DNA of 64,000 bases, from positions 1 to 64,000 of the IMG/VR virus record IMGVR_UViG_3300045988_108212. One strand, 5' to 3'. Source of the stretch: a virus. The translations under genes and the position numbers were made by a program. Below the pieces are notes generated by a model that worked only from the letters and a program-made list of their open reading frames with translations, searched no databases and was not told the origin of the DNA. Positions 2,189-41,293 of this stretch are shown piece by piece; positions within the stretch are counted from its first letter, which is position 1; each line of letters opens with the position of its first letter.

Positions 2189-2260
2189 TATTAACTTGGA
2201 ATATTGAACATGAAAAAATATTGCAGTAATCATATTATAGTTTTACATTTTAGTTAGAAG

Positions 2261-2335
2261 ATAGGGAAGAGAACAAAACTTTAATATGGTTCACAAATTG
2301 GATTATATGATTTTTTGTTTTCTTCCCTATTTTTT
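2261..2335 (+). terminator. long hairpin with T-run
   Basis: ATAGGGAAGAGAACAAAA (2261..2278) pairs with TTTTGTTTTCTTCCCTAT (2313..2330), then TTTTT. Confidence 0.6.
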
Positions 2336-2362
2336 ACGATTTTAAAAGAAAGGGTGTATTTA

Positions 2363-2602
2363 TTGAATTCAGAAATTACAACGCCTGAGCAGTTGCAGGA
2401 AGCCTATAAAGATACAAAACTCATTCCTGTTACAAGTTTAGCACAGGTTAAGTTCTATGTGGAACATGGCGTACAACCACTTCTGGTCTATCCGTCTGAA
2501 CGTGCAGATATTATGGCGTTCTGGTATCCAAAAAAAGATACATACAGACTATATGTTGATTATAGAAAATATATTAACGATAAATATCAGGTAGGTGAAT
2601 AG
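2363..2602 (+). CDS. hypothetical protein
   Basis: The in-frame TTG at 2363 follows AAAGGGTG. The track start at 2315 lies inside the upstream terminator hairpin. Confidence 0.4.
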   Translation: MNSEITTPEQLQEAYKDTKLIPVTSLAQVKFYVEHGVQPLLVYPSERADIMAFWYPKKDTYRLYVDYRKYINDKYQVGE

Positions 2603-3131
2603 GTTGGCAAAGAATGTTGGTAAGAGATTTGAAGAAAATTGGAAAGCCAGTATTCCTTCAGACGTATTCTACTATCGTTTAAAAGATCAGGCGCAATCTT
2701 TTGGTGGTTGTAGTAATTTAAGATTTTCAAGTAAGAATCCTTGCGATTGTTTCTTATTCTCTTCTCCTTATATGTACGCATTGGAATTGAAAAGTGTTGG
2801 TACTTCTTCTATTTCTTTTGAACGTACCAAAGAAGAAAAAGGCGTGATTCATTATCATCAGATTAAAGGTTTAAGAGAATTTGTTAGTTACAGAAATATG
2901 ATCGCAGGGTTTTTATTTAATTTTAGAAAGAAAGATAACATGGAAACTACATATTTTCAACACATCAATGATTTTGACAGAATGATTGCTTCTATAGATA
3001 AAAAATCATTCAACGAAAAGGATTTAAAAAAATTCAATCCAATCATTGTTAATAGTCGAAAATTAAAAGTCAATTACAGATATCACGTATCTGAATTGCT
3101 TGAGAAGTTAAATAGAGAAATGGAGAGATAA
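2595..3131 (+). CDS. RecU-like PD-(D/E)xK Holliday-junction resolvase or nuclease
   Basis: GKRFEE near the N-terminus, DCFLFSSPYMYALELKS (D...ExK) and a downstream HQIKGL resemble the B. subtilis RecU motifs (DY..IDFEAKE, HQIEH). Comparison is from memory. Confidence 0.5.
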   Translation: MNRLAKNVGKRFEENWKASIPSDVFYYRLKDQAQSFGGCSNLRFSSKNPCDCFLFSSPYMYALELKSVGTSSISFERTKEEKGVIHYHQIKGLREFVSYRNMIAGFLFNFRKKDNMETTYFQHINDFDRMIASIDKKSFNEKDLKKFNPIIVNSRKLKVNYRYHVSELLEKLNREMER

Positions 3132-3135
3132 TTTT

Positions 3136-3816
3136 ATGGGTAAAATCGCTTTTGAAACAAGACATTATGAAGATGGGTCTTTAAATAGATTTGAGGCAAA
3201 TGATTTCGTTGAGGCGGTTGTCGCTTCTGCTTTCCCAGTAACTCAGGATGAAAACGGAATATCTAGTATGGACTATGATCCACTGAGTAAACTTATGGGA
3301 ATCAAGATGAATATTATCAAATTTTATGGAAACGTGGATTTAGAAAACATTGGCATTGAGGAATTATACGCACTTGCCTCAGATATCGATGTTGATGAAT
3401 TTGTCGATGAGAATGATATTAACAAAGTACAGTTTAAAGATATGTTAGCTGCAATTGATGAAAAATGTGGCTATATCAAACAGCAGTTAATTGCAAGTGC
3501 AATTGATATTAAACTTGACAGCAAAGATGTGAATTTCAAGGTCGAAGGTGTTGACGATTTAGTAGAATCTGTCGTGGCTTTAGCACCTGCTCTTGAATAT
3601 ATTAATGAAGTATTTGCCAAAGCTGATCCAGAAGTAACTCAGAAGATGATGCAGTATTTTGCAGATCATGGCTTTGACTTTACTGCCGAAGACATTACAA
3701 AAGCTGTTGTTGAATCTGATGATTTTCAGAAAAATAGAATTGATGCACTTGAAGCAATTAAACAGGGTGCCGCTGATGCAGTCAATAATAATGTAGTTTC
3801 TATTGACAGAAAGTAA
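3136..3816 (+). CDS. acidic hypothetical protein (possible tail assembly chaperone by position)
   Basis: 226-aa D/E-rich ORF between the tail tube gene and the tape-measure gene. No slippery or -1 frameshift partner was seen. Confidence 0.55.
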   Translation: MGKIAFETRHYEDGSLNRFEANDFVEAVVASAFPVTQDENGISSMDYDPLSKLMGIKMNIIKFYGNVDLENIGIEELYALASDIDVDEFVDENDINKVQFKDMLAAIDEKCGYIKQQLIASAIDIKLDSKDVNFKVEGVDDLVESVVALAPALEYINEVFAKADPEVTQKMMQYFADHGFDFTAEDITKAVVESDDFQKNRIDALEAIKQGAADAVNNNVVSIDRK

Positions 3817-3825
3817 GGTGATCTC

Positions 3826-4224
3826 ATGGGGAACATGGGCGCAATGGCTGGGTTATGGAGACAAATCCAGAATGAAATGCGTGATGCTGTAAGTGAAGCT
3901 GAGAGTAAAACATTCTTAACAGCCAACCAAGAGCTTACTGCTTCTTATGCTGGTGGAAAACCAAAGGAATATGAGCGAACATATCAGATGAAAAACTCCG
4001 CAAGAACAACTGGCGTTGTTGGTGGCGGAGATTCTGTTAGTGCCACTGTGTATCTTGATCAGGGATACAATTATGATACTGGAACTTACTCTACTCCTCA
4101 CGTCTTTTCAGAAGCAGAATCTGGGGGATCTGGTATCGTATTAACTTCTGGATTCTGGCAACGTACAGAGCAAAAAGCTCAACAATATGCTGAACAGGCA
4201 TTTGCAAAAAGATTTAAACAATAA
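3826..4224 (+). CDS. hypothetical structural-module protein
   Basis: 132-aa ORF. AAGGTG lies upstream of the ATG. Confidence 0.55.
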   Translation: MGNMGAMAGLWRQIQNEMRDAVSEAESKTFLTANQELTASYAGGKPKEYERTYQMKNSARTTGVVGGGDSVSATVYLDQGYNYDTGTYSTPHVFSEAESGGSGIVLTSGFWQRTEQKAQQYAEQAFAKRFKQ

Positions 4225-26451: not shown

Positions 26452-29400
26452 GTGAATAACGAATTGGTATTAGAAAGTAATACATTAGATCTTTTATTTG
26501 TAAAAGATGGAGAACAAGGTACAGATGGTAAAATGCTGTATACTTGGATTAAATACGCAAAAGATGATAAAGGTACCGATATGACCGATGATCCGCAGAG
26601 TGCAGTTTATATTGGTATTTCTTATAATAACGAAAGCAACGTAGAATCTGATGATCCTACACAGTATGCATGGACTAAGATTCAGGGTGCTGATGGTAAA
26701 AAGGGTGAAGACGCTTATACGATCGTATTAGAGAATGAGAATATTTCTTTTGCCACGGATGAAAATAGAAATCCATTATCAGAACAGGCTTATACTTCCA
26801 GAATTACTGTTATGAAGGGAGCTACACCTGTCACTGATTTTGGTATTGGAGATATTGCTAAAACACAAGGAATTGCTATCGCTAAAGGTGACGATGGAAT
26901 TTCTATTAGTGTCGTAAATGGAAATGCTTTACCTGCCGATTCTGGAGAAATCACTGTGCCTATTTCTGTAGGTGGTACGGTGTTTAAGAAAGTGCTGACT
27001 TGGACTTGTGCCAAGAAAGGCGAACAAGGTGTTAAAGGTGATAAAGGTGACACTGGGCAAAAGGGTCAAGATGGTACTTCCGTAAAAATCACATCTAAAT
27101 CAGTTACATATCAAACGTCAACTTCTGGCACAACAGCACCTACAGGAACGTGGTCAACTACTGTTCCTACGGTTAATAATGGGCAATATCTCTGGACTAA
27201 AACTACAGTACAATACTCAGATGGTAATAAGACTGAAGCGTATTCTGTATCTTACAAAGGTACAAACGGTACGAACGGAACTTCTGTAACTGTAAGTAAA
27301 ACGGAAATCACTTATCAAGTTAGTACAAGCGGAACTACTGCTCCTACAGGTACGTGGAGTACAACAATGCCAAGTTGTGACCAAGGACAGTATTTATGGA
27401 CTAAGACTTATGTTAAGTATTCTGATGGGAAAGATACTACTTCTTATAGTGTAAGTTACAAAGGGGTTGATGGGGAGAAGTTTGCATTTAATATGCTGAG
27501 AGAAACCAATCAAGGTAGTAAGCACTGGGTTAATATGGGAGCATCTGGCAAATATTCTGTAGAATCTATTACTACGGAGGACAGTATAAATGCTGTAAAA
27601 TTAATATGTACAAAACCAATTGCGTCTAATGAATGGCAATTTTGCGAGTTTTCAGATTATGAGATGCTTAAGAGTTTAAAAGCATCAACTACTTATACTT
27701 TATCTTACGATATTAAAACAAATAGATCAGGGAAAATTTTACACAATATCAAAACTGGTGGTGGACAAAAACCGTTCTTTGCGAATGATATTAGTTGTAA
27801 AGTTTTAGGGAATGAAACATGGGAGCACGTTTCATTAAAAATGACAAGCGGTACAACATTGCCAAACTTAGATAGACAGGTAATATATATGTTTGATAAC
27901 GCCCTTTCAAAAGTTGGTTATTCAATCATCAAAAATCTCAAACTTACAGAAGGTATAGTAGACACACCTTGGGCACCTCATCCAGAAGATCTTGAAGGTC
28001 GTGGAGTCTCTGAAACAGTTCAATACTACCTAGCAACATCTCAAGCCTCTGGAGTAACTTCTTCTACTTCTGGATGGAGTACAGATATTACAACTCAAAA
28101 ACTAACTGCGGACAAAAAATATTTATGGAATTGTTATCAGACTAAATATTCAGACGGTACGAGTGAACCTATTAGCACACCCAAAGTTATTGGTGTATAC
28201 GGGGATAAGGGAAATGGTATCGTGGCAAGTGTCCAAAGACCTAATAAGACCGAATTTTGGTGGAACCAAGTTGGTGCAGTAGGTCATAAAGATACATTTG
28301 ATGATTCATCTAATACTCGTAACAATTGTAGAGTTGGAGATATTTTTACAGTTATGGGAACGTCCACAGAGGGTAATTCGCATACGGTCTATTATAAGAG
28401 CGCAACTGATAGCGGAGATTTAGCAGGAGAATGTATTAATCATGTTATTGCTGAAAGTGGGGCTGATGCCAAAAACCTCTCTATCACACCTTCATCTCAA
28501 TATTTCAAAAGCACAGATGGTGGCAAAACATTTGCACCAAATACAATCACAATCAAACCTACTATTCAAGGAGAAATCAATTTCGGTAAATGGCAGTATT
28601 CTATTGATGGTGGTGTTAGCTTCGCTGATGCTGTGAGTGGACAGAAAGGCTTGACGATCAGTAATAATGTGCTGACTGTTAACAAAGATAGCAGTTTATA
28701 TAGTGACGCTGTTACTATGGTTACTTTCAGAGCTGTTGCAAGTGATAGTAGTTTTTATGACACTTGTAGTATTGCTAAGTTGTATGATGTTACGGATATT
28801 GGTGATGGTAGGAATTTATTGTGGAATAGTAATTTTGCTAAGACCGATGAAGCTATTAGGGCAAGTGCTTATACTACATGGGGATTTTGCTTAAGAGGAA
28901 ATACATATACTGCAACAATTGATACATCTGTTAAACATAATGATTTTAATACATTAAAAGTTGTTGGTACTAAAGCTGGTGAAAACGGTGGACAAGATTT
29001 AATATACAGGATTAAAGGGCTGAATTTAAATGAAATAAAATTCACAGAAACAGGTGCAAAATACACTTTATCTTTTTATGCAAAAGCTTCTGTCGATTGT
29101 AATTTTAGTGTACGATACGCCTATGATTCATACGCAAAAGATACTAATGCTGCGTTAGGTACAGATTGGAAAAGATATGAAATTCAAATGCATCTGACCA
29201 CAACTTCATATCAAACTGCTTTAATATTTAAAATGGATGCTGCTTCTACAGTCTATTTTTCTGAATTTAAGCTTGAAAAAGGTTCTTCCGCAACTGGTTA
29301 TTCTACTGCACCAGAAGATGTTCAAACAGCGATTTTATCTACAAAAAACAGTATAGATTCTGTTAGCAGTAAGGTAGATACCAACACAAAATCAATTCAG

Positions 29401-32400
29401 GACAAAGTTTCCAAGACTACTTATGAAAGAGAGTTAACACTTGTTAAAGGCGATTTATCTAAAGCAAATGAGGGGTTAAATAAGTGGAGATATGAGATTT
29501 ATCCTAAGAGTTTGTTTGATAGTGCGGATCAGGGGAAAAGTACGATTGATATTTTTGCAAAGAATTTGAACTTAGTGCCTAGCCAGACCGTGTTGTTAGA
29601 TGATGCTAGTTTGAGCACAGGTATGGGTTATGGAGATAATCACATTGCTTATGCATTAACTTTTGTGAAAATGAGTGCTAAGAAAGATGTTACAACAAAG
29701 ATGTTTAATGATGATGGAGCTTCTTTGTATGTTAATGGGGGATTGATTATTACTCGTCCAAGTGAGTACACTAATGGAGAAGAAATTACATTCACTCTTG
29801 CACAAGGTTGGAATTGTATTGAGGTTGTTGTTAATGAGGGCGGTGGTGATGAAGGATTCCGCTTCTCTACTACTCTTTCTAAGTTGTCCGAATGTCAGAT
29901 GATGAACTGTTATTATGGTACACCTGTTGCAAGACAAAGTAGAATTACAAATCAGTTGGTTGATGTTACTAAGAATTTGAATGGAGTTACATCAACTGTA
30001 CAAGATGTTATGACCGCGGTTGGAAATTCTGGAAATATTACTGAATTTAAAAACAATTATAGTAAGTGGAAACAAAGTGTAGATAAGATTGAGACTCGTG
30101 TTGGAGAAAAGTATGTTACTAATGAGAAGTTCAATGGATTGGAAATTGGTGGTAGGAATCTATTAACAAAAGACGATTGTAATATGTCTAAATGGCAAAA
30201 TTTATATCCAGCCCATTGTAAAATTACAAGCAATGATTACTTAAATCATGTAGATTATGTTCCTACTGGCAACGAATGGGAAATTGTTTATACGAAAATC
30301 TCAGTTACGAAAGGACAAAAATATATTTTGTCTTTTGATTATAAGATTAATAAAGCCTACAACTACCTAAGTGGACAAAAATATGGTGTATATTTATCAA
30401 CGTCTGTGCCAACAAACGCAGCACCTGCAAACATTATTACAAATGGACAATATGTTATAGAAAATACGGTTACGAACATCAAACGTGGTATGATCACTTT
30501 TACTGCCGCTGTCGATACGCTTTATATTGTAATTAATGGCGGTTGCATAGATGATAACCAGACTGGATTAAGTTTTGAGTTTAATAAATGGAAGCTTGAA
30601 AAAGGCAACAAAGCAACAGACTGGACTCCAGCACCTGAAGACAATGAGATCAACGGGCAGAATTTAGTGAGTAACTTACCTGATAATTGGGAACAGGGCG
30701 GCTTCGATGACGGAAAGACAAATATTGGATGTGATTATGCAACAAATAAGACAAGCATGACAACTCGTATTCGATGTGCAGAATTGATTCCAGTGTCTGG
30801 TCAAGTTACAATATCAAACGCTTATGCAAATTCACAAAAACCTATTCAATATTGGATCACAGCTTTTGACGTTAACAAAAAATGGTTAGGGAAAGACTAT
30901 GTAAGTACAGCATGGACAAACTTCCCTGCCACTGTTGACATGAAAGACGCCAAATATTTAGCCATTATATTAAGATATAATGATGAATCAGCAATCACAC
31001 CTTCCGACATCTCAAAAATCTGCTTAAAAATCGAACGTGGTACTTCTGCTACACCATTCACATTAGCACCTGAAGATGTGAACGGAAAAATTGTAAATGT
31101 AGAAACTATTGCTAATCAGACCGCTAAGAAGTTTGAGTGGATTGTTAAGGGCGGAGATAAATCATCTAGCATGGTGCTTACAGATGATTTTTTGAATATC
31201 GTTGCTAATAATATTAATCTGACTGGGAAAGTTACTTTTAATAGTTTTGATAGTGCTGCGCAAAAGAAAATTAATGACATTGATACGAAAGCGGGAAACG
31301 CATCTACTGCTGCAAGCACCGCACAAGCATCTGCGAACAATGCAAAAGCTGCCGCTGATAAGGCTCAGAGCAGTGTTGATAGATTAGAAATTGGTGGTAG
31401 GAACTTGGTAAGGTTAGGCGGGCTATCAGGTAATGGTGCAACTTCTTTTTCTTACGATAAAACAACAGACACATACACCATAGTATCACCCGTTGTCTCA
31501 ACAGTATGGGGAATTGGGGCTGCCGTAAAATATGACGATAACCATAAAGTATTAATACCATATGGGAAAACATACATATTATCTTTTGAAGTTAAAGTGC
31601 CACAGGCATTATCTATCAATATTGATATAAACAACTATGCTGTTTCCGGAAGTTCCTGGGCAGGAAATGATAATGATGCTGGTTCTGCGAGAGGTCAGTC
31701 TTCTTATAGTATTCCTGCAAACACATGGACAAAAGTATGGGTCAGATGGGCAAACACTAATACTAAGAATACAAATAAGGTTGATTTATATGATAATTCT
31801 AGTATTGGATTAGTAACTAAAGATTGTACTTCTGCTGTTACATGGCAAATCAGACATGTAAAAGGTGAATTGGGCAACAAACCTACAGATTGGACTCCAG
31901 CTCCTGAAGATGTATCTCAGGATGCAACTAATAAAGCAAGTCAAGCTTTAACAGATGCCAAAAACTACTCTTCTAATGCAGTTAACTGGGTAACTAGCAA
32001 TGGTTCATCAACAACGAGTCTTAATTCAATGGTCAAAAAATGGACAGATGGGGCAGTAAGCGATACAACGCAGATCAATGGTGGATGGATTAAAGCAAAT
32101 ACTATTACTGCTAGTAAGATAGCATTAGCTGACTTTACAAACTATTCTCAGCTAACCAGAGATACAGCAGCTACATATGGATTTGCAGTGACTGATGATA
32201 CAGATGGTACATGGTTTAGTACGCAAGGCATTAGGCGAGATCAGTTTATTTCTGAAATATTCCCTTGCAATGGCGGTGAAAGTTATCTTATCGAATATGA
32301 TATTTCCACCAATGCAAAGGGAGCAAACAATTCAACCGACACTAAAAATTATATTGGTGTAGCCATTGGTGTTTATGGATATACAGGAACTGTTGGCTCT

Positions 32401-34005
32401 AATGGACTTCCAAACAAAGCAACAAATATTTGGTATGCGACTAGAGTAACTGGATCTGAAGCTGCTGCAGTAACACACGTAAAAACTACAATTACTACTT
32501 CTACAGCTACAAAACAATTCCGAATATTTTTACAATCAAACGGATACTATTTTGAAGGCACAACAAAGATTAGAAACCTATCTGTTCGTAGAATGTATGG
32601 CGGAACACTTATTGTAGATGGCTCTATCACAGCAGACAAAATTGCAACAGATGCCATTAAATCTCGTAACTACATCTCTTCTGGTGGTACACAAGGGTCA
32701 TTTTTGAATCTGAGCGATGGTAGTTTTCAGAGTCCTAATTTAAGTTGGGATGCAAATGGTAATTTGATTGCCAAGAATGCGAACCTGAGTGGTGAGATTA
32801 CAGCTACGAATGGTAGTATTGCGGGATGGACTATAATTAGCAATAAGATGTATACGACAGGATCTGGTAAATATACAGGTATTGGTAAGTACGGAAGTGC
32901 TTATGCTTTCTGGGCGGGTGCAACAAGCAATGATAACGGAAATAGTGCCGTATTTAAGGTTGGTCACACTGGTAAATTAACTGCCACAGATGCAGATATT
33001 ACGGGAACAATTACTGCTACGAATGGTAAGATTGGTCGCTATGATATTACGTCAACATATCTGATGACAAACAGCGGAAGTAATGCATCTGGTATTGGTG
33101 GAAATCAGGCTTTCTGGGCTGGTGCTGAAGATAGCAATTCTGCTCCTTTTAGAGTTGGGTATGATGGAGTTTTGTGGGCAGAAAATGCCGCCATAAGAGG
33201 AAGTATCGAAACTGGAAATTTAGGAGATGAAGGAGATACTGTCTCTATAATAAACGGACATATAGGAATACAAGGTACGTCAAATAATGTTGAAATTTAT
33301 TCAACTGGATTTAAATTTGGTATTGATGGGGACTATTATTTAATGTCAGTTTCAGAAGGAGTCAAATGCTATCGAAATTTGTATGCAACAGATTTTGTAG
33401 CGGACGGTTGGCTTTATTGCTCAGAAGTGCATAGTTCTGGTGCAGTTGTCATTGGTGCTGATAGCGAATCTTTTTATTGGGCGCATGGGTACCAAATTGC
33501 ACGTGGAACATCGTGGGGAGGTGTATGTGTCGGTGATGATAGTCAACAATTGCGACTTTATGGTTCGTCTATCTGGGCATCACACAGCATTTCTACTTCA
33601 GACGAAAATCTTAAAGAAAACTTTACTACTCTTGATCAATATGAAAATTTCTATATGAATCTAAATCCTATAGGGTTCAATTACATTGGAGATTATGATG
33701 GTAAGAAAACTCATTTTGGATTTGGTGCTCATAAAACAGAAGACGTCTTAGAATCCGAGGGTTATGATGCTGATAAATTTGCTGTAGTAACACATAGACC
33801 TCTTGTACAGGAAGATATTGAAAAGCGTTTTGGCAAAGATGTTGAGGTCGATATTGAAACGGAATATGGTGTTTCTTATACAGAATTTATTGCATTAAAT
33901 ACCCATATGATTCAAAAGACACGAAGAGAACTTACCAAAGTCAAACAAGAAAAAGCCGACCTAGAAGTTCGATTACAAGCAATCGAAGCAAAGCTTGGAC
34001 TTTAA
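26452..34005 (+). CDS. giant modular tail fibre / receptor-binding protein with a C-terminal S74-type intramolecular chaperone domain
   Basis: There is a short collagen-like run (GEQGVKGDKGDTGQKGQDG), duplicated 68-aa modules, and five modules ending ..KLEKG..AT.W.PAPED. The C-terminus is SDENLKE...GFGAHK...coiled coil. The start could be GTG 26452 or the in-frame TTG 26464. Confidence 0.8.
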   Translation: MNNELVLESNTLDLLFVKDGEQGTDGKMLYTWIKYAKDDKGTDMTDDPQSAVYIGISYNNESNVESDDPTQYAWTKIQGADGKKGEDAYTIVLENENISFATDENRNPLSEQAYTSRITVMKGATPVTDFGIGDIAKTQGIAIAKGDDGISISVVNGNALPADSGEITVPISVGGTVFKKVLTWTCAKKGEQGVKGDKGDTGQKGQDGTSVKITSKSVTYQTSTSGTTAPTGTWSTTVPTVNNGQYLWTKTTVQYSDGNKTEAYSVSYKGTNGTNGTSVTVSKTEITYQVSTSGTTAPTGTWSTTMPSCDQGQYLWTKTYVKYSDGKDTTSYSVSYKGVDGEKFAFNMLRETNQGSKHWVNMGASGKYSVESITTEDSINAVKLICTKPIASNEWQFCEFSDYEMLKSLKASTTYTLSYDIKTNRSGKILHNIKTGGGQKPFFANDISCKVLGNETWEHVSLKMTSGTTLPNLDRQVIYMFDNALSKVGYSIIKNLKLTEGIVDTPWAPHPEDLEGRGVSETVQYYLATSQASGVTSSTSGWSTDITTQKLTADKKYLWNCYQTKYSDGTSEPISTPKVIGVYGDKGNGIVASVQRPNKTEFWWNQVGAVGHKDTFDDSSNTRNNCRVGDIFTVMGTSTEGNSHTVYYKSATDSGDLAGECINHVIAESGADAKNLSITPSSQYFKSTDGGKTFAPNTITIKPTIQGEINFGKWQYSIDGGVSFADAVSGQKGLTISNNVLTVNKDSSLYSDAVTMVTFRAVASDSSFYDTCSIAKLYDVTDIGDGRNLLWNSNFAKTDEAIRASAYTTWGFCLRGNTYTATIDTSVKHNDFNTLKVVGTKAGENGGQDLIYRIKGLNLNEIKFTETGAKYTLSFYAKASVDCNFSVRYAYDSYAKDTNAALGTDWKRYEIQMHLTTTSYQTALIFKMDAASTVYFSEFKLEKGSSATGYSTAPEDVQTAILSTKNSIDSVSSKVDTNTKSIQDKVSKTTYERELTLVKGDLSKANEGLNKWRYEIYPKSLFDSADQGKSTIDIFAKNLNLVPSQTVLLDDASLSTGMGYGDNHIAYALTFVKMSAKKDVTTKMFNDDGASLYVNGGLIITRPSEYTNGEEITFTLAQGWNCIEVVVNEGGGDEGFRFSTTLSKLSECQMMNCYYGTPVARQSRITNQLVDVTKNLNGVTSTVQDVMTAVGNSGNITEFKNNYSKWKQSVDKIETRVGEKYVTNEKFNGLEIGGRNLLTKDDCNMSKWQNLYPAHCKITSNDYLNHVDYVPTGNEWEIVYTKISVTKGQKYILSFDYKINKAYNYLSGQKYGVYLSTSVPTNAAPANIITNGQYVIENTVTNIKRGMITFTAAVDTLYIVINGGCIDDNQTGLSFEFNKWKLEKGNKATDWTPAPEDNEINGQNLVSNLPDNWEQGGFDDGKTNIGCDYATNKTSMTTRIRCAELIPVSGQVTISNAYANSQKPIQYWITAFDVNKKWLGKDYVSTAWTNFPATVDMKDAKYLAIILRYNDESAITPSDISKICLKIERGTSATPFTLAPEDVNGKIVNVETIANQTAKKFEWIVKGGDKSSSMVLTDDFLNIVANNINLTGKVTFNSFDSAAQKKINDIDTKAGNASTAASTAQASANNAKAAADKAQSSVDRLEIGGRNLVRLGGLSGNGATSFSYDKTTDTYTIVSPVVSTVWGIGAAVKYDDNHKVLIPYGKTYILSFEVKVPQALSINIDINNYAVSGSSWAGNDNDAGSARGQSSYSIPANTWTKVWVRWANTNTKNTNKVDLYDNSSIGLVTKDCTSAVTWQIRHVKGELGNKPTDWTPAPEDVSQDATNKASQALTDAKNYSSNAVNWVTSNGSSTTSLNSMVKKWTDGAVSDTTQINGGWIKANTITASKIALADFTNYSQLTRDTAATYGFAVTDDTDGTWFSTQGIRRDQFISEIFPCNGGESYLIEYDISTNAKGANNSTDTKNYIGVAIGVYGYTGTVGSNGLPNKATNIWYATRVTGSEAAAVTHVKTTITTSTATKQFRIFLQSNGYYFEGTTKIRNLSVRRMYGGTLIVDGSITADKIATDAIKSRNYISSGGTQGSFLNLSDGSFQSPNLSWDANGNLIAKNANLSGEITATNGSIAGWTIISNKMYTTGSGKYTGIGKYGSAYAFWAGATSNDNGNSAVFKVGHTGKLTATDADITGTITATNGKIGRYDITSTYLMTNSGSNASGIGGNQAFWAGAEDSNSAPFRVGYDGVLWAENAAIRGSIETGNLGDEGDTVSIINGHIGIQGTSNNVEIYSTGFKFGIDGDYYLMSVSEGVKCYRNLYATDFVADGWLYCSEVHSSGAVVIGADSESFYWAHGYQIARGTSWGGVCVGDDSQQLRLYGSSIWASHSISTSDENLKENFTTLDQYENFYMNLNPIGFNYIGDYDGKKTHFGFGAHKTEDVLESEGYDADKFAVVTHRPLVQEDIEKRFGKDVEVDIETEYGVSYTEFIALNTHMIQKTRRELTKVKQEKADLEVRLQAIEAKLGL

Positions 34006-36510: not shown

Positions 36511-36924
36511 ATGAACAAATTTAAAGAATTTTTGGCAAGTATTAATTGGAGTGAAGTTAAACCACATACTGTTGTAAGTCTGATTTTACAGGTGTTGGCG
36601 TGGATCAATATGGGATTAACTGCGGCAGGCAAACCAGTGATTGACGTACATGAAGATGTAATTAACCAAGTAGTTGGTATTGCTTTTGTAGTTGGAACAT
36701 CTCTGTATGGAGATTGGAAAAATCATAGTTTTACATGGACAGCTCAGTTTGCAGATGAAATTGCTTACGCTCTGAGAGACGGTAGATTAACTCTTGAAGA
36801 GGCTGAGGAAATCAAGAATAAGATTGGTCAAAAAGATGTGATCGTAAAAGTTGATAAGGATTTATTTGAAAAAGAATTAGATGATGTTACTGAAGGCAAA
36901 GAATCTGATGACATTGTTGGATAA
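36511..36924 (+). CDS. holin (SPP1-holin-like)
   Basis: Two TM segments and a GDWKNHSFTWTAQ motif resemble the SPP1-family holin signature. It lies directly upstream of the endolysin. Confidence 0.65.
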   Translation: MNKFKEFLASINWSEVKPHTVVSLILQVLAWINMGLTAAGKPVIDVHEDVINQVVGIAFVVGTSLYGDWKNHSFTWTAQFADEIAYALRDGRLTLEEAEEIKNKIGQKDVIVKVDKDLFEKELDDVTEGKESDDIVG

Positions 36925-37022: not shown

Positions 37023-37754
37023 ATGGCATTAAAATTTAAAACAAGAACGGCAAAGAGCGTGAGCTACGGAAGTAAACGTAGCACGAGTTCTATTAAGTTT
37101 ATTGTAATCCATTTCACAGGGAATGACGGAGATTCCGCTAAGAACAATGCAGATTATTTTGCCACTGGTAATACGAGAGCTGCTGGGGCACACTATTTCA
37201 TTGATGAGGGAGATATTGTATGGAAATCTGTTCCTGTTAATCGAGTAGCATGGGCAGTTGGAGGATTTGTTACAAATGCTAATGGAGGTGCAAAATTTTA
37301 TAAGATTTGTACTAATGCAAACAGTCTAAGCATTGAAATGGCTAATTCTGTAGGAAGTGTTCCTAAGGCTACATATAAAAATGCTGTTAGTCTAACTAAA
37401 AAACTTATGAAAAAATACAATATTCCTGCCAGTCATGTTCTAAGGCACAATGATGTATCGGGAAAACAGTGCCCAGAACCTTGGTGTGGAAAAAATAATA
37501 AACAGTGGGCTAAATTCAAAGCAGACATTTCTGGTTCTACAGTAGTAAAACCAAAAGCATCTTCTAAGTTTAAATCATACAAAGTAAAAGTAACTGCTTC
37601 TGCTCTTAAGGTGCGTAAATCTCCATCTACGACGGCTGCTATTGCCAAAGATGCCTATAAGAAAGGCACAACAGTTACAATCAAAGCTGTTAAGAATGGT
37701 TGGGGTAAAACTAAAGATGGTTGGATTAAACTGTCTTATACAAAGAAATGTTAA
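37023..37754 (+). CDS. endolysin: N-acetylmuramoyl-L-alanine amidase (Amidase_2/PGRP) with a C-terminal SH3-like binding domain
   Basis: IVIHFTGN, AGAHYFID, LSIEMAN and HVLRHNDVSGKQCPEPW motifs. C-terminus YKVKVTASALKVRKSPS...GWIKLSY. Confidence 0.85.
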   Translation: MALKFKTRTAKSVSYGSKRSTSSIKFIVIHFTGNDGDSAKNNADYFATGNTRAAGAHYFIDEGDIVWKSVPVNRVAWAVGGFVTNANGGAKFYKICTNANSLSIEMANSVGSVPKATYKNAVSLTKKLMKKYNIPASHVLRHNDVSGKQCPEPWCGKNNKQWAKFKADISGSTVVKPKASSKFKSYKVKVTASALKVRKSPSTTAAIAKDAYKKGTTVTIKAVKNGWGKTKDGWIKLSYTKKC

Positions 37755-37933
37755 GGGATATGAAAAGATATAAGAAACAGTTATGATTGATTTGACGATC
37801 AGTCGGTATTTTCTTTATTAGTTTTCTTTGTCAGTGATAAAGAATTGTTACTCTCTGCTGCGGAGAGGGTAAATATGAGCAGAATAAACTAGGCTCTGCC
37901 TCTATTTTTTTTATCAAAAAGTGTTGTATTTGT

Positions 37934-37961
37934 TTTGAATTTGTGTATAATGAAAGTAGGA
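37934..37961 (+). promoter_or_regulatory. candidate promoter for the repeat RNA
   Basis: TTGTAT (37934..37939), a 16-nt spacer, then TATAAT (37956..37961). Confidence 0.5.
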
Positions 37962-38029
37962 ATAGTAATATTCTCGATGAAAGAGCATCGTTAAAAGTTG
38001 TGCTGCAAGTGGAGCAGGGTAATTTTCCA

Positions 38030-38144
38030 CAACGAAAAGATATTTTAACTGGATATCACGTCTTGCGACTAGGAGTAAAGTCGTAGTCCATGCAGGGGAC
38101 TTAAGGATTTCTGCAACGAAAAGATATTTTAACTGGATATCACG
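38030..38144 (+). repeat. two perfect 31-nt direct repeats (84-nt period), each preceded by a small hairpin
   Basis: CAACGAAAAGATATTTTAACTGGATATCACG occurs at 38030..38060 and 38114..38144. Confidence 0.9.
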
Positions 38145-38183
38145 GCTGACAACCAGCAGAAAACTCTAATAAAGAATTATCGA

Positions 38184-38212
38184 AGAGTGTGGCTTCTGTC
38201 CCACTCTTTTTT
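38184..38212 (+). terminator. rho-independent terminator between the repeat RNA and the downstream ORF
   Basis: AGAGTGTGG pairs with CCCACTCT (one bulge), followed by TTTTTT. It ends 16 nt before the ATG at 38228. Confidence 0.65.
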
Positions 38213-38227
38213 ACGTATGAGGTAAAT

Positions 38228-38854
38228 ATGGCATCAAAAACACAAAAGAAAAATAAAATACGACAAGATATTATAGAGGCAGCGTCCATGTATGAACAAT
38301 ACCTAGCTGGCCAAGCATTTTTATATGTATATGGAAATGAATATTTTGAAGTGATGTTCCCAGTCAATAGATTTTTGCATCTTGCTGGCGTAGAAACTAG
38401 ATTGTTTGCAAAAAAATTTTATAAAAATGCCAGAGAAAAAACATTAACTACACAACAGTTTTATTTCTCTCCAAGACATCCTTTTGAAGTCTCTAAAAAG
38501 AAACTATCATGTCTCAAAAGATTATATGAATTAACAAACACGAAGGTTCGTATTCTTAGGAATATGGAAACAGCCAGTGTTGTTTATAAAGTTGGCATAT
38601 CGAACTTAGAGTTTACTTTGTGCTTAACAGAGAACAGAGATTCTAATGGAGAAAAAATTAATGAATACTTCTTGCCAATGTCGTTACGAGCAGGAAGAAA
38701 TTCAACGAAAAATGGTGATGATTATGGAGAAGTTGACTTCATTTTTCAAAAAGACGCAAGTCTTGGAAAGTATACAACTCTTCTGGTAAAGAATGAAAAC
38801 AAAGAGATTCCAGAATGTGTTCATCATTTGTTGCAAGGGAATTTATTACAATAA
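38228..38854 (+). CDS. hypothetical 208-aa protein; candidate toxin partner of the upstream repeat RNA
   Basis: ATG follows GAGGTAAAT. The track start at 38189 lies inside the terminator. There is no confident family assignment. The FLHLAGV motif is faintly reminiscent of barnase/EndoU/RelE-like phage nuclease domains. Confidence 0.6.
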   Translation: MASKTQKKNKIRQDIIEAASMYEQYLAGQAFLYVYGNEYFEVMFPVNRFLHLAGVETRLFAKKFYKNAREKTLTTQQFYFSPRHPFEVSKKKLSCLKRLYELTNTKVRILRNMETASVVYKVGISNLEFTLCLTENRDSNGEKINEYFLPMSLRAGRNSTKNGDDYGEVDFIFQKDASLGKYTTLLVKNENKEIPECVHHLLQGNLLQ

Positions 38855-38867
38855 GAATAAAAAATTA

Positions 38868-38906
38868 AGGGTACATCAGATTAATTTCTGGTGTACCCTA
38901 TTTTTT
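38868..38906. terminator. bidirectional terminator
   Basis: AGGGTACATCAGA pairs with TCTGGTGTACCCT. It is flanked by an A-run and a T-run, between convergent genes. Confidence 0.7.
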
Positions 38907-39147
38907 ACGATTTTTCTACTCTACACATATCATCTATTTCATGCTCAGACAAGTATAAAGGCATCCCACATTTATCATCGAAGAATGAAATGGTGTATTC
39001 TGTAGAATCAATTCTAGCTCCATATAAGACTGTTTTCACAGGCGTCTGAGAGTCAATTTCTGTGAGCTGTACTGTGTCACCTATATGGAATAATCCGCAC
39101 TCTGTATTGAGTGTCTGAGTGCTTTCGTTGTATTCGTATATTCTCAT
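38905..39147 (-). CDS. hypothetical protein
   Basis: 80-aa ORF. AAGGAGGTG lies upstream of the ATG. Confidence 0.55.
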   Translation of the reverse strand: MRIYEYNESTQTLNTECGLFHIGDTVQLTEIDSQTPVKTVLYGARIDSTEYTISFFDDKCGMPLYLSEHEIDDMCRVEKS

Positions 39148-39987: not shown

Positions 39988-41208
39988 TCAATTCATGTCT
40001 AACAATATTTGCTCTTTAGTTATGTGTTGTTTTGGATATGCTGCGTTTAATTTATCGTTTTGTGATTCAATATGATCTTGTAATAAATGAACATAAATCT
40101 TTTCGGTAATCGTTACATTTGCATGTCCAAGATATTTTGAAATGACTACCATTGGAATTCCTGCCTCAAAACATCTTGTCGCAAAAGTATGTCTTAACCG
40201 ATGAACGGATACTGGCAAAAGATAATCTTTTTCATCCAATTGAAAATTAATTTGTTCCCTTGCACTTGCTAATACAGAATTTAGTGTTTGATTCGGCATT
40301 GGAGTATTGTATGGTGTGGTAAATAACAAATTTTTAAACTCAGATGATACATGACGATCTGCATATATAGATTTCTCTACACGTTGTTTTAATACGATTT
40401 GCTGTTGGAAAGCCTCGTATGCGACATCATTTAGTGGAATTTCTCTCACACTTGAAGGAGTTTTTGTATCGCCAATATAATATTGATATTTGCCATCAAT
40501 TTTATTTTTCTTTAAGGACTTTGTAATATGCACCGTCCTAGATTTCATATCAAAATCATTTATTGTAAGTGCGCCAACCTCTCCGTATCTTAACCCAGTT
40601 GTTAAAAGAAAAACATATAAATTATAATAGAAATGTCCATTCAAATAGTTAAATAACATTTGCTGTTGTTTAATAGTTAATGCCAGTACTTCATCTGAGA
40701 AAAGCTCTTTCTTTTTCTTTTTAACTTTGATCATTGTTACTGGGTTATAAGGAATACAATGTGCTTCTCTACTTTTTTCTAAGGTTTGAGAAATTATATT
40801 TTTTGCATTATCAATAGTTTTATCACTATATTTTTTCTTCAAAGTTTGAAAAAATGAATCTAATGTAAATTCGGTTATATCTACAACTCTAATATTTTTC
40901 AGACTTGGTGCGATGCAATTGTCATAAATCCATTCATATTGTTCCTGAGTATTTGGTGCCAAGTCAACAAATGCTATGCTTTTCCAACGAAAATACCAAA
41001 CTTCAAAAGTGTCAGTGCAATGTTTTGCATTTACTTTTAGATCGTCTTTTGCTCTTTCTTCTTTCAACCATTCCTTTACTTCTTTTAAACTTTTACTTTT
41101 TGTTTCGATGCGTTCTCCAAAACGATTCGTAAACCTTGCTTGATAACGTCCGTCCTTCCGCTGAGACAGGTACGTTCCAAGTTCTCTTCCTTTTAAATCT
41201 TTTCCCAT
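39988..41208 (-). CDS. int: tyrosine integrase
   Basis: ATG at 41208 follows AAGGAAGG. The N-terminal arm-binding motif is GTYLSQRKDGRYQARF. Catalytic residues: TGLRYGE (R), HRLRHTFAT (HxxR), LGHANV, and Y in IYVHL. Confidence 0.9.
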   Translation of the reverse strand: MGKDLKGRELGTYLSQRKDGRYQARFTNRFGERIETKSKSLKEVKEWLKEERAKDDLKVNAKHCTDTFEVWYFRWKSIAFVDLAPNTQEQYEWIYDNCIAPSLKNIRVVDITEFTLDSFFQTLKKKYSDKTIDNAKNIISQTLEKSREAHCIPYNPVTMIKVKKKKKELFSDEVLALTIKQQQMLFNYLNGHFYYNLYVFLLTTGLRYGEVGALTINDFDMKSRTVHITKSLKKNKIDGKYQYYIGDTKTPSSVREIPLNDVAYEAFQQQIVLKQRVEKSIYADRHVSSEFKNLLFTTPYNTPMPNQTLNSVLASAREQINFQLDEKDYLLPVSVHRLRHTFATRCFEAGIPMVVISKYLGHANVTITEKIYVHLLQDHIESQNDKLNAAYPKQHITKEQILLDMN

Positions 41209-41293
41209 GATTATACGTCCTTCCTTTTGTGTATTCATTGGAAAAGAATCTAAATTAAATTATAGTACAATTACAATATATCACATTTAGATT

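Follow-up and report, generated by a model that had tools for sequence, protein, structure and literature searches.

We describe a genetic module, located in 64 000 nt of viral DNA (IMG/VR record IMGVR_UViG_3300045988_108212, positions 1 to 64 000; the whole stretch is called ‘the window’), in which a promoter is followed by a structured RNA of ~215 nt, an intrinsic terminator and a gene for a 208-aa protein with a PBECR4 domain. The combination of RNA and PBECR4 gene recurs in hundreds of related loci. With somewhat more confidence than doubt, we regard the module as a type III-like pair of an RNA antitoxin and a toxin, used in abortive infection or addiction, with a toxin fold and an RNA that are new to such systems.

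The initial annotation, made from the sequence of the window, had proposed a type III toxin–antitoxin layout with an array of tandem RNA repeats as the antitoxin. The order of the elements (promoter, structured RNA, terminator, Shine–Dalgarno (SD) sequence and nuclease gene) turned out to be conserved. The type III-like interpretation is partly upheld, by this architecture, by the lack of a conserved protein partner, by the RNA–gene linkage and by the pattern of gene loss; the view of the RNA as a simple repeat array had to be given up. Sequence and comparison of homologs together establish the promoter, RNA structure, terminator, gene order, strict RNA–gene linkage and protein family described here.

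To characterize the RNA, loci encoding homologs of the 208-aa protein (80 genomic and 20 viral) were fetched and their upstream regions were aligned; 63 distinct leaders were used in the structure test. In the aligned regions, conservation reaches all the way from the −10 box to the terminator. The nhmmer profile of the 63 leaders matches the conserved core, designated type A (Table 1), and nothing else within the window. This core is more conserved than the gene that follows it (69–87 versus 61–71% nt identity).

The type A fold consists of 12 helices, including two pseudoknots, and 97.1% of the alignment cells in these helices are paired (93–95% in the pseudoknot helices). In slid controls, with partners shifted by 1–3 columns, the value was 34–47%. 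Compensatory changes, i.e. changes on both sides of a pair, were found at 44 of the 69 pairs; substitutions in the pseudoknots are illustrated by the pairs AGAUGG/CCAUCU, ACGUGG/CCACGU and UGCAG/CUGCA. None of 500 shuffles reached the observed value on any measure. The RNA structure is real and constrained, far beyond chance. The long-range closing helix is predicted; all four of its pairs are invariant, hence covariation speaks neither for nor against it.

An open reading frame (ORF) of 47 aa starting with GTG (37943–38086) was considered as a coding explanation of the conservation and rejected: homologs carry frame-breaking indels, and changes in the stems are compensatory. No conserved reading frame was found in the core, where the median length of the longest stop-free stretch is 33 codons. 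The Rfam 15 search gave no family at the gathering score in the region and no relevant match at E ≤10 in positions 37700–39000. The RNA family is undescribed, being absent from Rfam 15 and from the literature searched.

Each half of the core follows the same plan. The seven-nucleotide loop of a short hairpin pairs with a strand ~10 nt downstream, forming an H-type pseudoknot, and a 6-bp hairpin with the conserved loop UUAACUG comes second. The two small hairpins noticed initially (CTGC..GCAG, 38003–38017, and AGTCC..GGACT, 38085–38101) are conserved helices of this plan, and it is their loops that form the pseudoknots with the downstream strands. Trained on module 2 of other lineages only, a covariance model scores 65.5 bits at module 2 of the window and finds module 1 as well (21.9 bits, E 7.5e−5); it detects module 1 ~82–84 nt upstream in every type A locus tested, therefore the tandem duplication is ancestral. 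The RNA is thus built on a 60-nt unit, a pseudoknot plus a hairpin, duplicated in tandem.

The two perfect 31-nt direct repeats that had drawn attention to the locus are exact, with a period of 84 nt; at 83% identity, the repeated stretch grows to 59 nt. Outside the lineage of the window (L081–L096), long exact repeats spaced in this way were seen solely in L097–L099, where their sequence is different. Thus, the expectation that homologs would carry conserved upstream repeats held for the two-module fold, which is kept with covariation, and failed for the long exact repeat: most homologs have none common to both modules. The 31-nt identity is a lineage-specific homogenization and suggests gene conversion between the modules. 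The same recombination would explain five loci with a single hybrid module (L063, L064, L065, L069 and L074), recombined between the two P2 hairpins. All five one-module RNAs accompany truncated PBECR4 genes; judging by common flanks, they probably derive from just one or two events.

The promoter TTGTAT–16 nt–TATAAT is present as initially read. Its TATAAT box is nearly invariant and stands at a constant distance 5′ of the conserved RNA in 68 aligned homologous upstream regions. A simple consensus scan missed the window promoter, whose −35 box matches three of six positions and falls below the threshold. The Rho-independent terminator, also recognized from the start, appears in both the minimum free energy (MFE) and centroid folds, and its stem covaries in homologs; a simple scan overlooked it because the stem is bulged. 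The linker between the RNA core and the terminator varies in length and sequence among the 63 leaders, which argues that the terminator is separate from the RNA fold, a trait also of type III systems. Pairing of the 5′ arm of the terminator with the pseudoknot strands, inspected by eye in the window as a candidate anti-terminator, failed. The SD sequence, the ATG at 38228 and the 208-aa ORF were all found where they had been placed.

The 208-aa protein belongs to Pfam family PBECR4, PF18813 (E 8e−26; 92 bits against a cut-off of 27), with residues 14–186 aligned to positions 1–183 of the 188 model positions. This is its sole Pfam match, in agreement with the initial impression that the protein is not a ToxN/AbiQ homolog, and it predicts an RNase of the BECR fold. 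The family name stands for phage-Barnase-EndoU-ColicinE5/D-RelE like nuclease 4. We counted 1216 family clusters at 50% identity (E ≤0.001). The protein also matches phrog_18856, a group without known function; PADLOC gave no match for it and NCBIfam none of value. For the AlphaFold model, which is confident (pLDDT 91), the only BFVD matches were phage proteins without names.

Iyer et al. 2017 (PMC5512222) delineated the PBECR domains from sequence and predicted them to be metal-independent RNases, encoded by phages and conjugative elements; according to the same paper, BECR-fold proteins of conflict systems are toxins. The window protein is a solo prophage-encoded version, as described there for some PBECR domains; a difference is that the domains are regarded there as injected effectors of polyvalent virion proteins. 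The passages of the literature covered by our search tie no RNA or immunity mechanism to PBECR4 and describe no pairing of a BECR protein with an RNA antitoxin. Polar residues invariant across two PBECR4 subfamilies include E41, H51, K92, S152, R154, Y120 and Y182, with H84 nearly so; this would be compatible with an active enzyme, though it is not proof of one.

To assess the linkage between RNA and gene, we used two samples. The protein-first sample consisted of de-duplicated loci. In this sample, the two-module RNA lies upstream of all 63 full-length genes of subfamily A, the subfamily of the window protein, for which enough upstream DNA was available. One other full-length gene (L071) belongs to a second subfamily, B, and has an RNA of another type, B. 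Among the truncated genes, 17 loci have the two-module RNA, five the one-module RNA and one has none.

Subfamily B proteins are 30–40% identical to the window protein. Their genes are mostly chromosomal (e.g. between tyrS and a transporter gene) and are also found on a Tn916-like element. All nine subfamily B loci inspected have their own conserved leader of similar length, with a TTGACA/TATAAT promoter, a good terminator and an SD sequence. This type B leader contains two covarying hairpin-loop pseudoknots (CACAAA/UUUGUG, CACAGA/UCUGUG and CACGGA/UCCGUG), and its closing helix covaries too, CACUGG/CCAGUG being replaced by CACCGG/CCGGUG in L288. The type B RNA escapes the module-2 covariance model, so homology of the two RNA types is drawn from common layout and short motifs alone. 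Scans of three type B loci against Rfam gave no family at the gathering score.

One sister module resides in a cultured strain whose genome is complete: in L289, positions 2234–3115 (NC_014389.1, plasmid pCY360 of Butyrivibrio proteoclasticus B316), a type B RNA and terminator precede the PBECR4 gene BPR_RS18325 (WP_013283001.1); the RNA region is unannotated in the gene table of NC_014389.1. With type B RNA present in all nine subfamily B loci and on this megaplasmid, the RNA type tracks the protein subfamily. The tblastn searches with three PBECR4 queries found no match among INPHARED phages; tblastn against plasmids gave the Butyrivibrio megaplasmid only. A more distant PBECR4 on an Enterococcus plasmid, mentioned in PMC11134301, was not reached by the plasmid search.

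When all ORFs of at least 35 aa around 80 loci were clustered, no conserved neighboring protein appeared that could serve as immunity protein or antitoxin. The flanks of the 80 loci are unrelated, and integrases occur in few of them. A single conserved RNA as the sole companion of a predicted toxin-fold nuclease is the hallmark of RNA-antitoxin systems.

Other PBECR4 genes are preceded by different elements. Two loci, L158 and L182, carry a diverged type A RNA without its gene, then a second promoter and a different leader of ~180 nt with its own terminator, and this second leader precedes a divergent PBECR4 gene (Pfam E 1.3e−16); this may be a third pairing of an RNA with PBECR4. In L290 (9–806) and L292 (1–165), genes of a distant PBECR4 group (P0380/P0385) are found just downstream of CRISPR-like arrays, on the same strand. 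Nine 28-nt repeats GTGTTCCGCCGCATAGGCGGTTTAGAAG with a 60-nt period are present in L290, two of them in a separate mini-array that immediately precedes the gene; in L292 the repeat is another one, of 27 nt, with a period of 65–66 nt.

The second, RNA-first sample was collected by exact matches to the 23-mer of the RNA tail (38144–38166) in viral and metagenome contigs. Among 141 usable matches, the PBECR4 gene is intact in 67, disrupted in 28 and absent in 46; for 50 de-replicated lineages the corresponding numbers are 18, 7 and 25. At least 15 different deletion configurations were observed, several of which keep the SD sequence and only the first few codons (MATKT..). In four relatives of the window phage (L118, L146, L149 and L153) PBECR4 is deleted and the RNA is joined, ~70 nt further on, to the same terminator that ends the module in the window (38868..38906). 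Orphan RNAs keep promoter boxes similar to TTGACA/TATAAT and 50–59 of the 59 core base pairs; some of them acquired different terminators. Repeated loss of the protein, with the RNA never lost first, fits what would be expected if the protein were harmful without the RNA, although it is not proof.

The type A RNA also occurs with other companions. In L256 (motif 2792–2815, reverse-complemented locus) and L117/L165, the cassette of promoter, RNA, terminator and SD is fused exactly at the ATG of a DUF6994 gene; this gene encodes 266 aa and is intact in L256, whereas L117 has a frameshifted copy, and a gene similar to the restriction family GmrSD_N is next, in a defence island. Relatives of the DUF6994 protein in viral contigs came from the same contig only. 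In L150, an orphan type A RNA is followed after 27 nt, on its own strand, by a skipping-rope RNA (3957–4035, minus strand). Beside this orphan RNA, at ~3300–3900 (minus strand), we observed a promoter, a 47-nt tandem repeat in 2.1 copies (3752–3853), a terminator and an ORF of 170–187 aa that has no Pfam or PADLOC match; this region looks like a classical CptIN-like type III toxin–antitoxin module whose toxin belongs to no assigned family.

The following mechanism is the one we consider most likely for the RNA antitoxin–toxin pair; RNase activity, toxicity, direct RNA–protein binding, processing and a role in defence are what we infer. A single constitutive promoter would drive synthesis of the ~215-nt RNA, which would fold into two tandem pseudoknot-plus-hairpin modules. 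Most transcripts would end at 38182–38212, with read-through transcripts serving as the mRNA of the PBECR4 endoribonuclease. Since the terminator would stop most transcripts, the RNA would be made in excess over the protein. The RNA would bind and neutralize the nuclease, possibly with one module per protomer, and might also be processed by it. A halt of transcription or decay of the RNA, upon phage infection or loss of the element, would free the more stable nuclease to cleave cellular or phage RNA.

A further suggestion concerns the gene-less copies. The RNA could neutralize PBECR4 in trans, and the many prophage copies that lack the gene and retain promoter, fold and terminator could then be anti-toxin decoys or immunity genes, which would shield a phage or its host against PBECR4-based abortive infection by competing elements. 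We put this forward tentatively, as a rather unlikely option. If true, it would imply an arms race fought with RNA, with a new toxin family at its centre. A parallel would be phage phiTE, reportedly observed by Blower et al. in 2012 to escape ToxIN by means of pseudo-ToxI repeats.

Several points weigh against an RNA antitoxin–toxin pair. The BECR fold and RNase activity are predicted from the Pfam assignment alone. Comparison of the predicted structure with solved folds, a check proposed in the initial annotation, gave nothing significant in a Foldseek search of the PDB (best E 0.17; RelE at rank 24 with probability 0.13), and a profile search of PDB sequences found nothing. The RNA is a single molecule closed by a predicted long-range helix and made of two diverged modules, unlike an array of identical 34–45-nt repeats. 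Most type A loci have just three U residues after the terminator. Orphan RNAs are common and well preserved, so the RNA may be functional by itself. The one lineage with the RNA cassette before a DUF6994 gene would also fit a portable regulatory leader. Finally, the samples are phylogenetically redundant, and misassembly of low-coverage contigs may account for some of the ‘disrupted’ genes.

The portable leader leads to the first alternative, which we consider quite improbable: the RNA would be a cis-acting 5′ leader, a riboswitch or other attenuator, that responds to a ligand or condition and sets read-through into the PBECR4 gene, and the protein would not be neutralized at all. The RNA does lie in the 5′ untranslated region, on the same strand and directly before a terminator hairpin and SD sequence; riboswitches typically show pseudoknots, highly conserved folds and aptamers in tandem, and the cassette before DUF6994 in L256 and L117 would suit a transferable regulator. 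However, the 63-sequence alignment shows no conserved anti-terminator pairing and has a variable linker between core and terminator, and Rfam yields no riboswitch match. Except in the DUF6994 lineage, the RNA keeps to a single protein family and diversifies with it, and half of the lineages maintain promoter, RNA and terminator with no gene downstream, some with new terminators.

Joint diversification and strict linkage would also suit an RNA–PBECR4 ribonucleoprotein that acts outside toxin–antitoxin biology, the RNA being a cofactor, a guide, a preferred substrate or the autoregulatory site of a non-toxic RNA-processing enzyme. Two equivalent modules, with concerted evolution in the window lineage, would suggest two equivalent protein-binding sites. 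Still, we see such a ribonucleoprotein as improbable: frequent loss of the gene with retention of the RNA suggests that the protein is costly and the RNA independent of it, the module, like selfish and defence modules, travels by itself between unrelated contexts, and Iyer et al. 2017 (PMC5512222) describe BECR-fold proteins of conflict systems as toxins.

Independence of the RNA could be taken further. The RNA may be a small-RNA gene of prophages and mobile elements, with PBECR4 as one of several cargo genes downstream; 25 of the 50 RNA-bearing lineages lack PBECR4 and have promoter and fold intact, DUF6994 is among the downstream genes, and the phage-associated skipping-rope RNA adjoins an orphan copy. 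We give this version a slim chance: many orphans keep the first PBECR4 codons and so derive from the full module, no intact subfamily A gene lacks the RNA, and the chromosomal and plasmid genes of subfamily B have a matched RNA of their own. That the repeat arose by chance or by recent local duplication without function, as the confinement of long exact repeats to the window lineage and L097–L099 might suggest, is already refuted for practical purposes by the two-module fold, conserved with covariation in all type A loci.

Coordinates of the module and of its neighborhood are listed in Table 1.

Table 1. Features of the RNA–PBECR4 module and adjacent genes (window coordinates)
Feature	Position	Strand	Comment
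SPP1-type holin gene	36511-36924		upstream of module
Amidase endolysin gene	37023-37754		upstream of module, after holin gene
−35 box TTGTAT	37924-37929	+	read in sequence; 16-nt spacer to −10
−10 box TATAAT	37946-37951	+	read in sequence; with −35 box, sigma-70-type promoter 37924..37951
Conserved structured RNA core, type A	37954..38167	+	~215 nt; nhmmer profile of 63 leaders, E 1e−54
Hairpin H0	37959-37964/37969-37974	+	both-side changes at 6/6 pairs
Hairpin H1	37975-37979/37986-37990	+	both-side changes at 3/5 pairs
Long-range closing helix (predicted)	37996-37999 (AGUU) with 38162-38165	+	RNAalifold
Module 1	38002..38060	+	P1 38003-38006/38014-38017; P2 38039-38044/38052-38057, 7-nt loop UUAACUG, both-side changes at 5/6 pairs of P2
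Pseudoknot 1	P1 loop 38007-38013 with 38026-38032	+	both-side changes at 4/7 pairs
31-nt repeat, copy 1	38030..38060	+	3′ part of pseudoknot 1, linker, hairpin P2
Inter-module hairpin H4	38065-38069/38080-38084	+	both-side changes at 4/5 pairs
Module 2	38085..38144	+	P1 38085-38089/38097-38101; P2 38123-38128/38136-38141, both-side changes at 6/6 pairs of P2
Pseudoknot 2	P1 loop 38090-38096 with 38110-38116	+	both-side changes at 5/7 pairs
31-nt repeat, copy 2	38114-38144	+	84-nt period from copy 1
Near-invariant tail GGCUGACAACCAGCAGAAAACUC	38144..38166	+	nearly all columns invariant in 63 sequences
Hairpin H5	38145-38148/38154-38157	+	within tail GGCUGACAACCAGCAGAAAACUC
Intrinsic terminator hairpin	38182-38192/38200-38209	+	one bulged base; T run to 38212; MFE and centroid folds; helix 12, both-side changes at 8/10 pairs (63 leaders)
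SD sequence GAGG	38219-38222	+	5 nt 5′ of ATG; conserved there in homologous loci
PBECR4-domain ORF, 208 aa	38228-38854	+	ATG at 38228; candidate toxin
Module-ending terminator	38868..38906	+	13-bp stem and T run (scan)
Tyrosine integrase gene	39988-41238	−	

The surroundings are the end of a prophage of a gut bacterium. The module has the lysis cassette on one side and the integrase gene on the other, as expected from the remark that it lies near the integrase, and two small minus-strand genes without family matches separate it from the integrase gene. A 28-nt stretch 3′ of the amidase gene (37850–37877) is 71% identical to the terminator–SD–ATG junction of the module (38203–38230); it consists of a hairpin plus GAGGGTAAATATG, opens an ORF of a mere five codons and may represent either a relic of such a junction or the terminator of the lysin gene. 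Before the lysis cassette, a 2517-aa ORF (26452–34005, plus strand) probably codes for a tail fibre or for a protein that recognizes the host. Far from the module, at 11350–11433 on the plus strand, the window contains a skipping-rope RNA (Rfam RF02924, 68 bits).

If confirmed, the RNA antitoxin–toxin pair would add a new family to the few RNA-antitoxin (type III-like) systems, with a toxin of the BECR fold and a much larger, differently built RNA. It would also provide the first function, the first regulator and the first functional context for the uncharacterized PBECR4 family. In addition, it would define a new RNA family with strong covariation and no Rfam entry, plentiful in prophages of human-gut Lachnospiraceae. 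The sister module on the B. proteoclasticus B316 megaplasmid makes the hypothesis directly testable in a cultured strain, and the wide occurrence of orphan RNAs prompts one to ask about anti-defence based on RNA.

The closest characterized analog is RCd22/AbiF (abiF motif, RF03085) of the Clostridioides difficile phi027 prophage (bioRxiv 10.1101/2025.04.15.648962). Both modules occupy a prophage position just after the lysis genes, and the RCd22/AbiF order of a SigA-type promoter, an RNA with a structured motif in two copies, a Rho-independent terminator, a ribosome-binding site and a gene for a toxic protein recalls that of the RNA–PBECR4 module. The short RCd22 RNA is the main transcript, read-through produces the toxin mRNA and the RNA neutralizes the protein by direct binding (same source). 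The two differ in the toxin, which is of Abi_2/HEPN type in C. difficile and has PBECR4 as its sole Pfam match in the window, and in the RNA, which has ~100–130 nt and simple motifs there, whereas here it has ~215 nt, two pseudoknots and a predicted closing helix. RF03085 was not among the matches at E ≤10 in positions 37700–39000.

With ToxIN, CptIN and TenpIN the module has in common a single promoter, repeated RNA units that form pseudoknots, a terminator limiting toxin synthesis and a (here predicted) endoribonuclease gene; those systems likewise have no protein antitoxin, and they are found on phages, plasmids and chromosomes of Firmicutes (e.g. PMC8860590 and PMC12283969). Regarding the defining traits of type III systems, pseudoknot units are present in the window RNA (four and five pairs with both-side changes), and so are a promoter 5′ of the RNA and a terminator between RNA and gene, both conserved in homologs. 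The toxin is not of the ToxN/AbiQ, CptN or TenpN families, as judged by Pfam (PBECR4 only) and by PADLOC (no match). The RNAs differ as well: ToxIN, CptIN and TenpIN have arrays of near-identical ~34–47-nt repeats that are cut into units, while the window RNA has exactly two diverged 60-nt modules with an 84-nt period in one closed fold. In protein and in RNA alike, the module falls outside the families ToxIN, CptIN, TenpIN and AbiF; it appears to work as they do.

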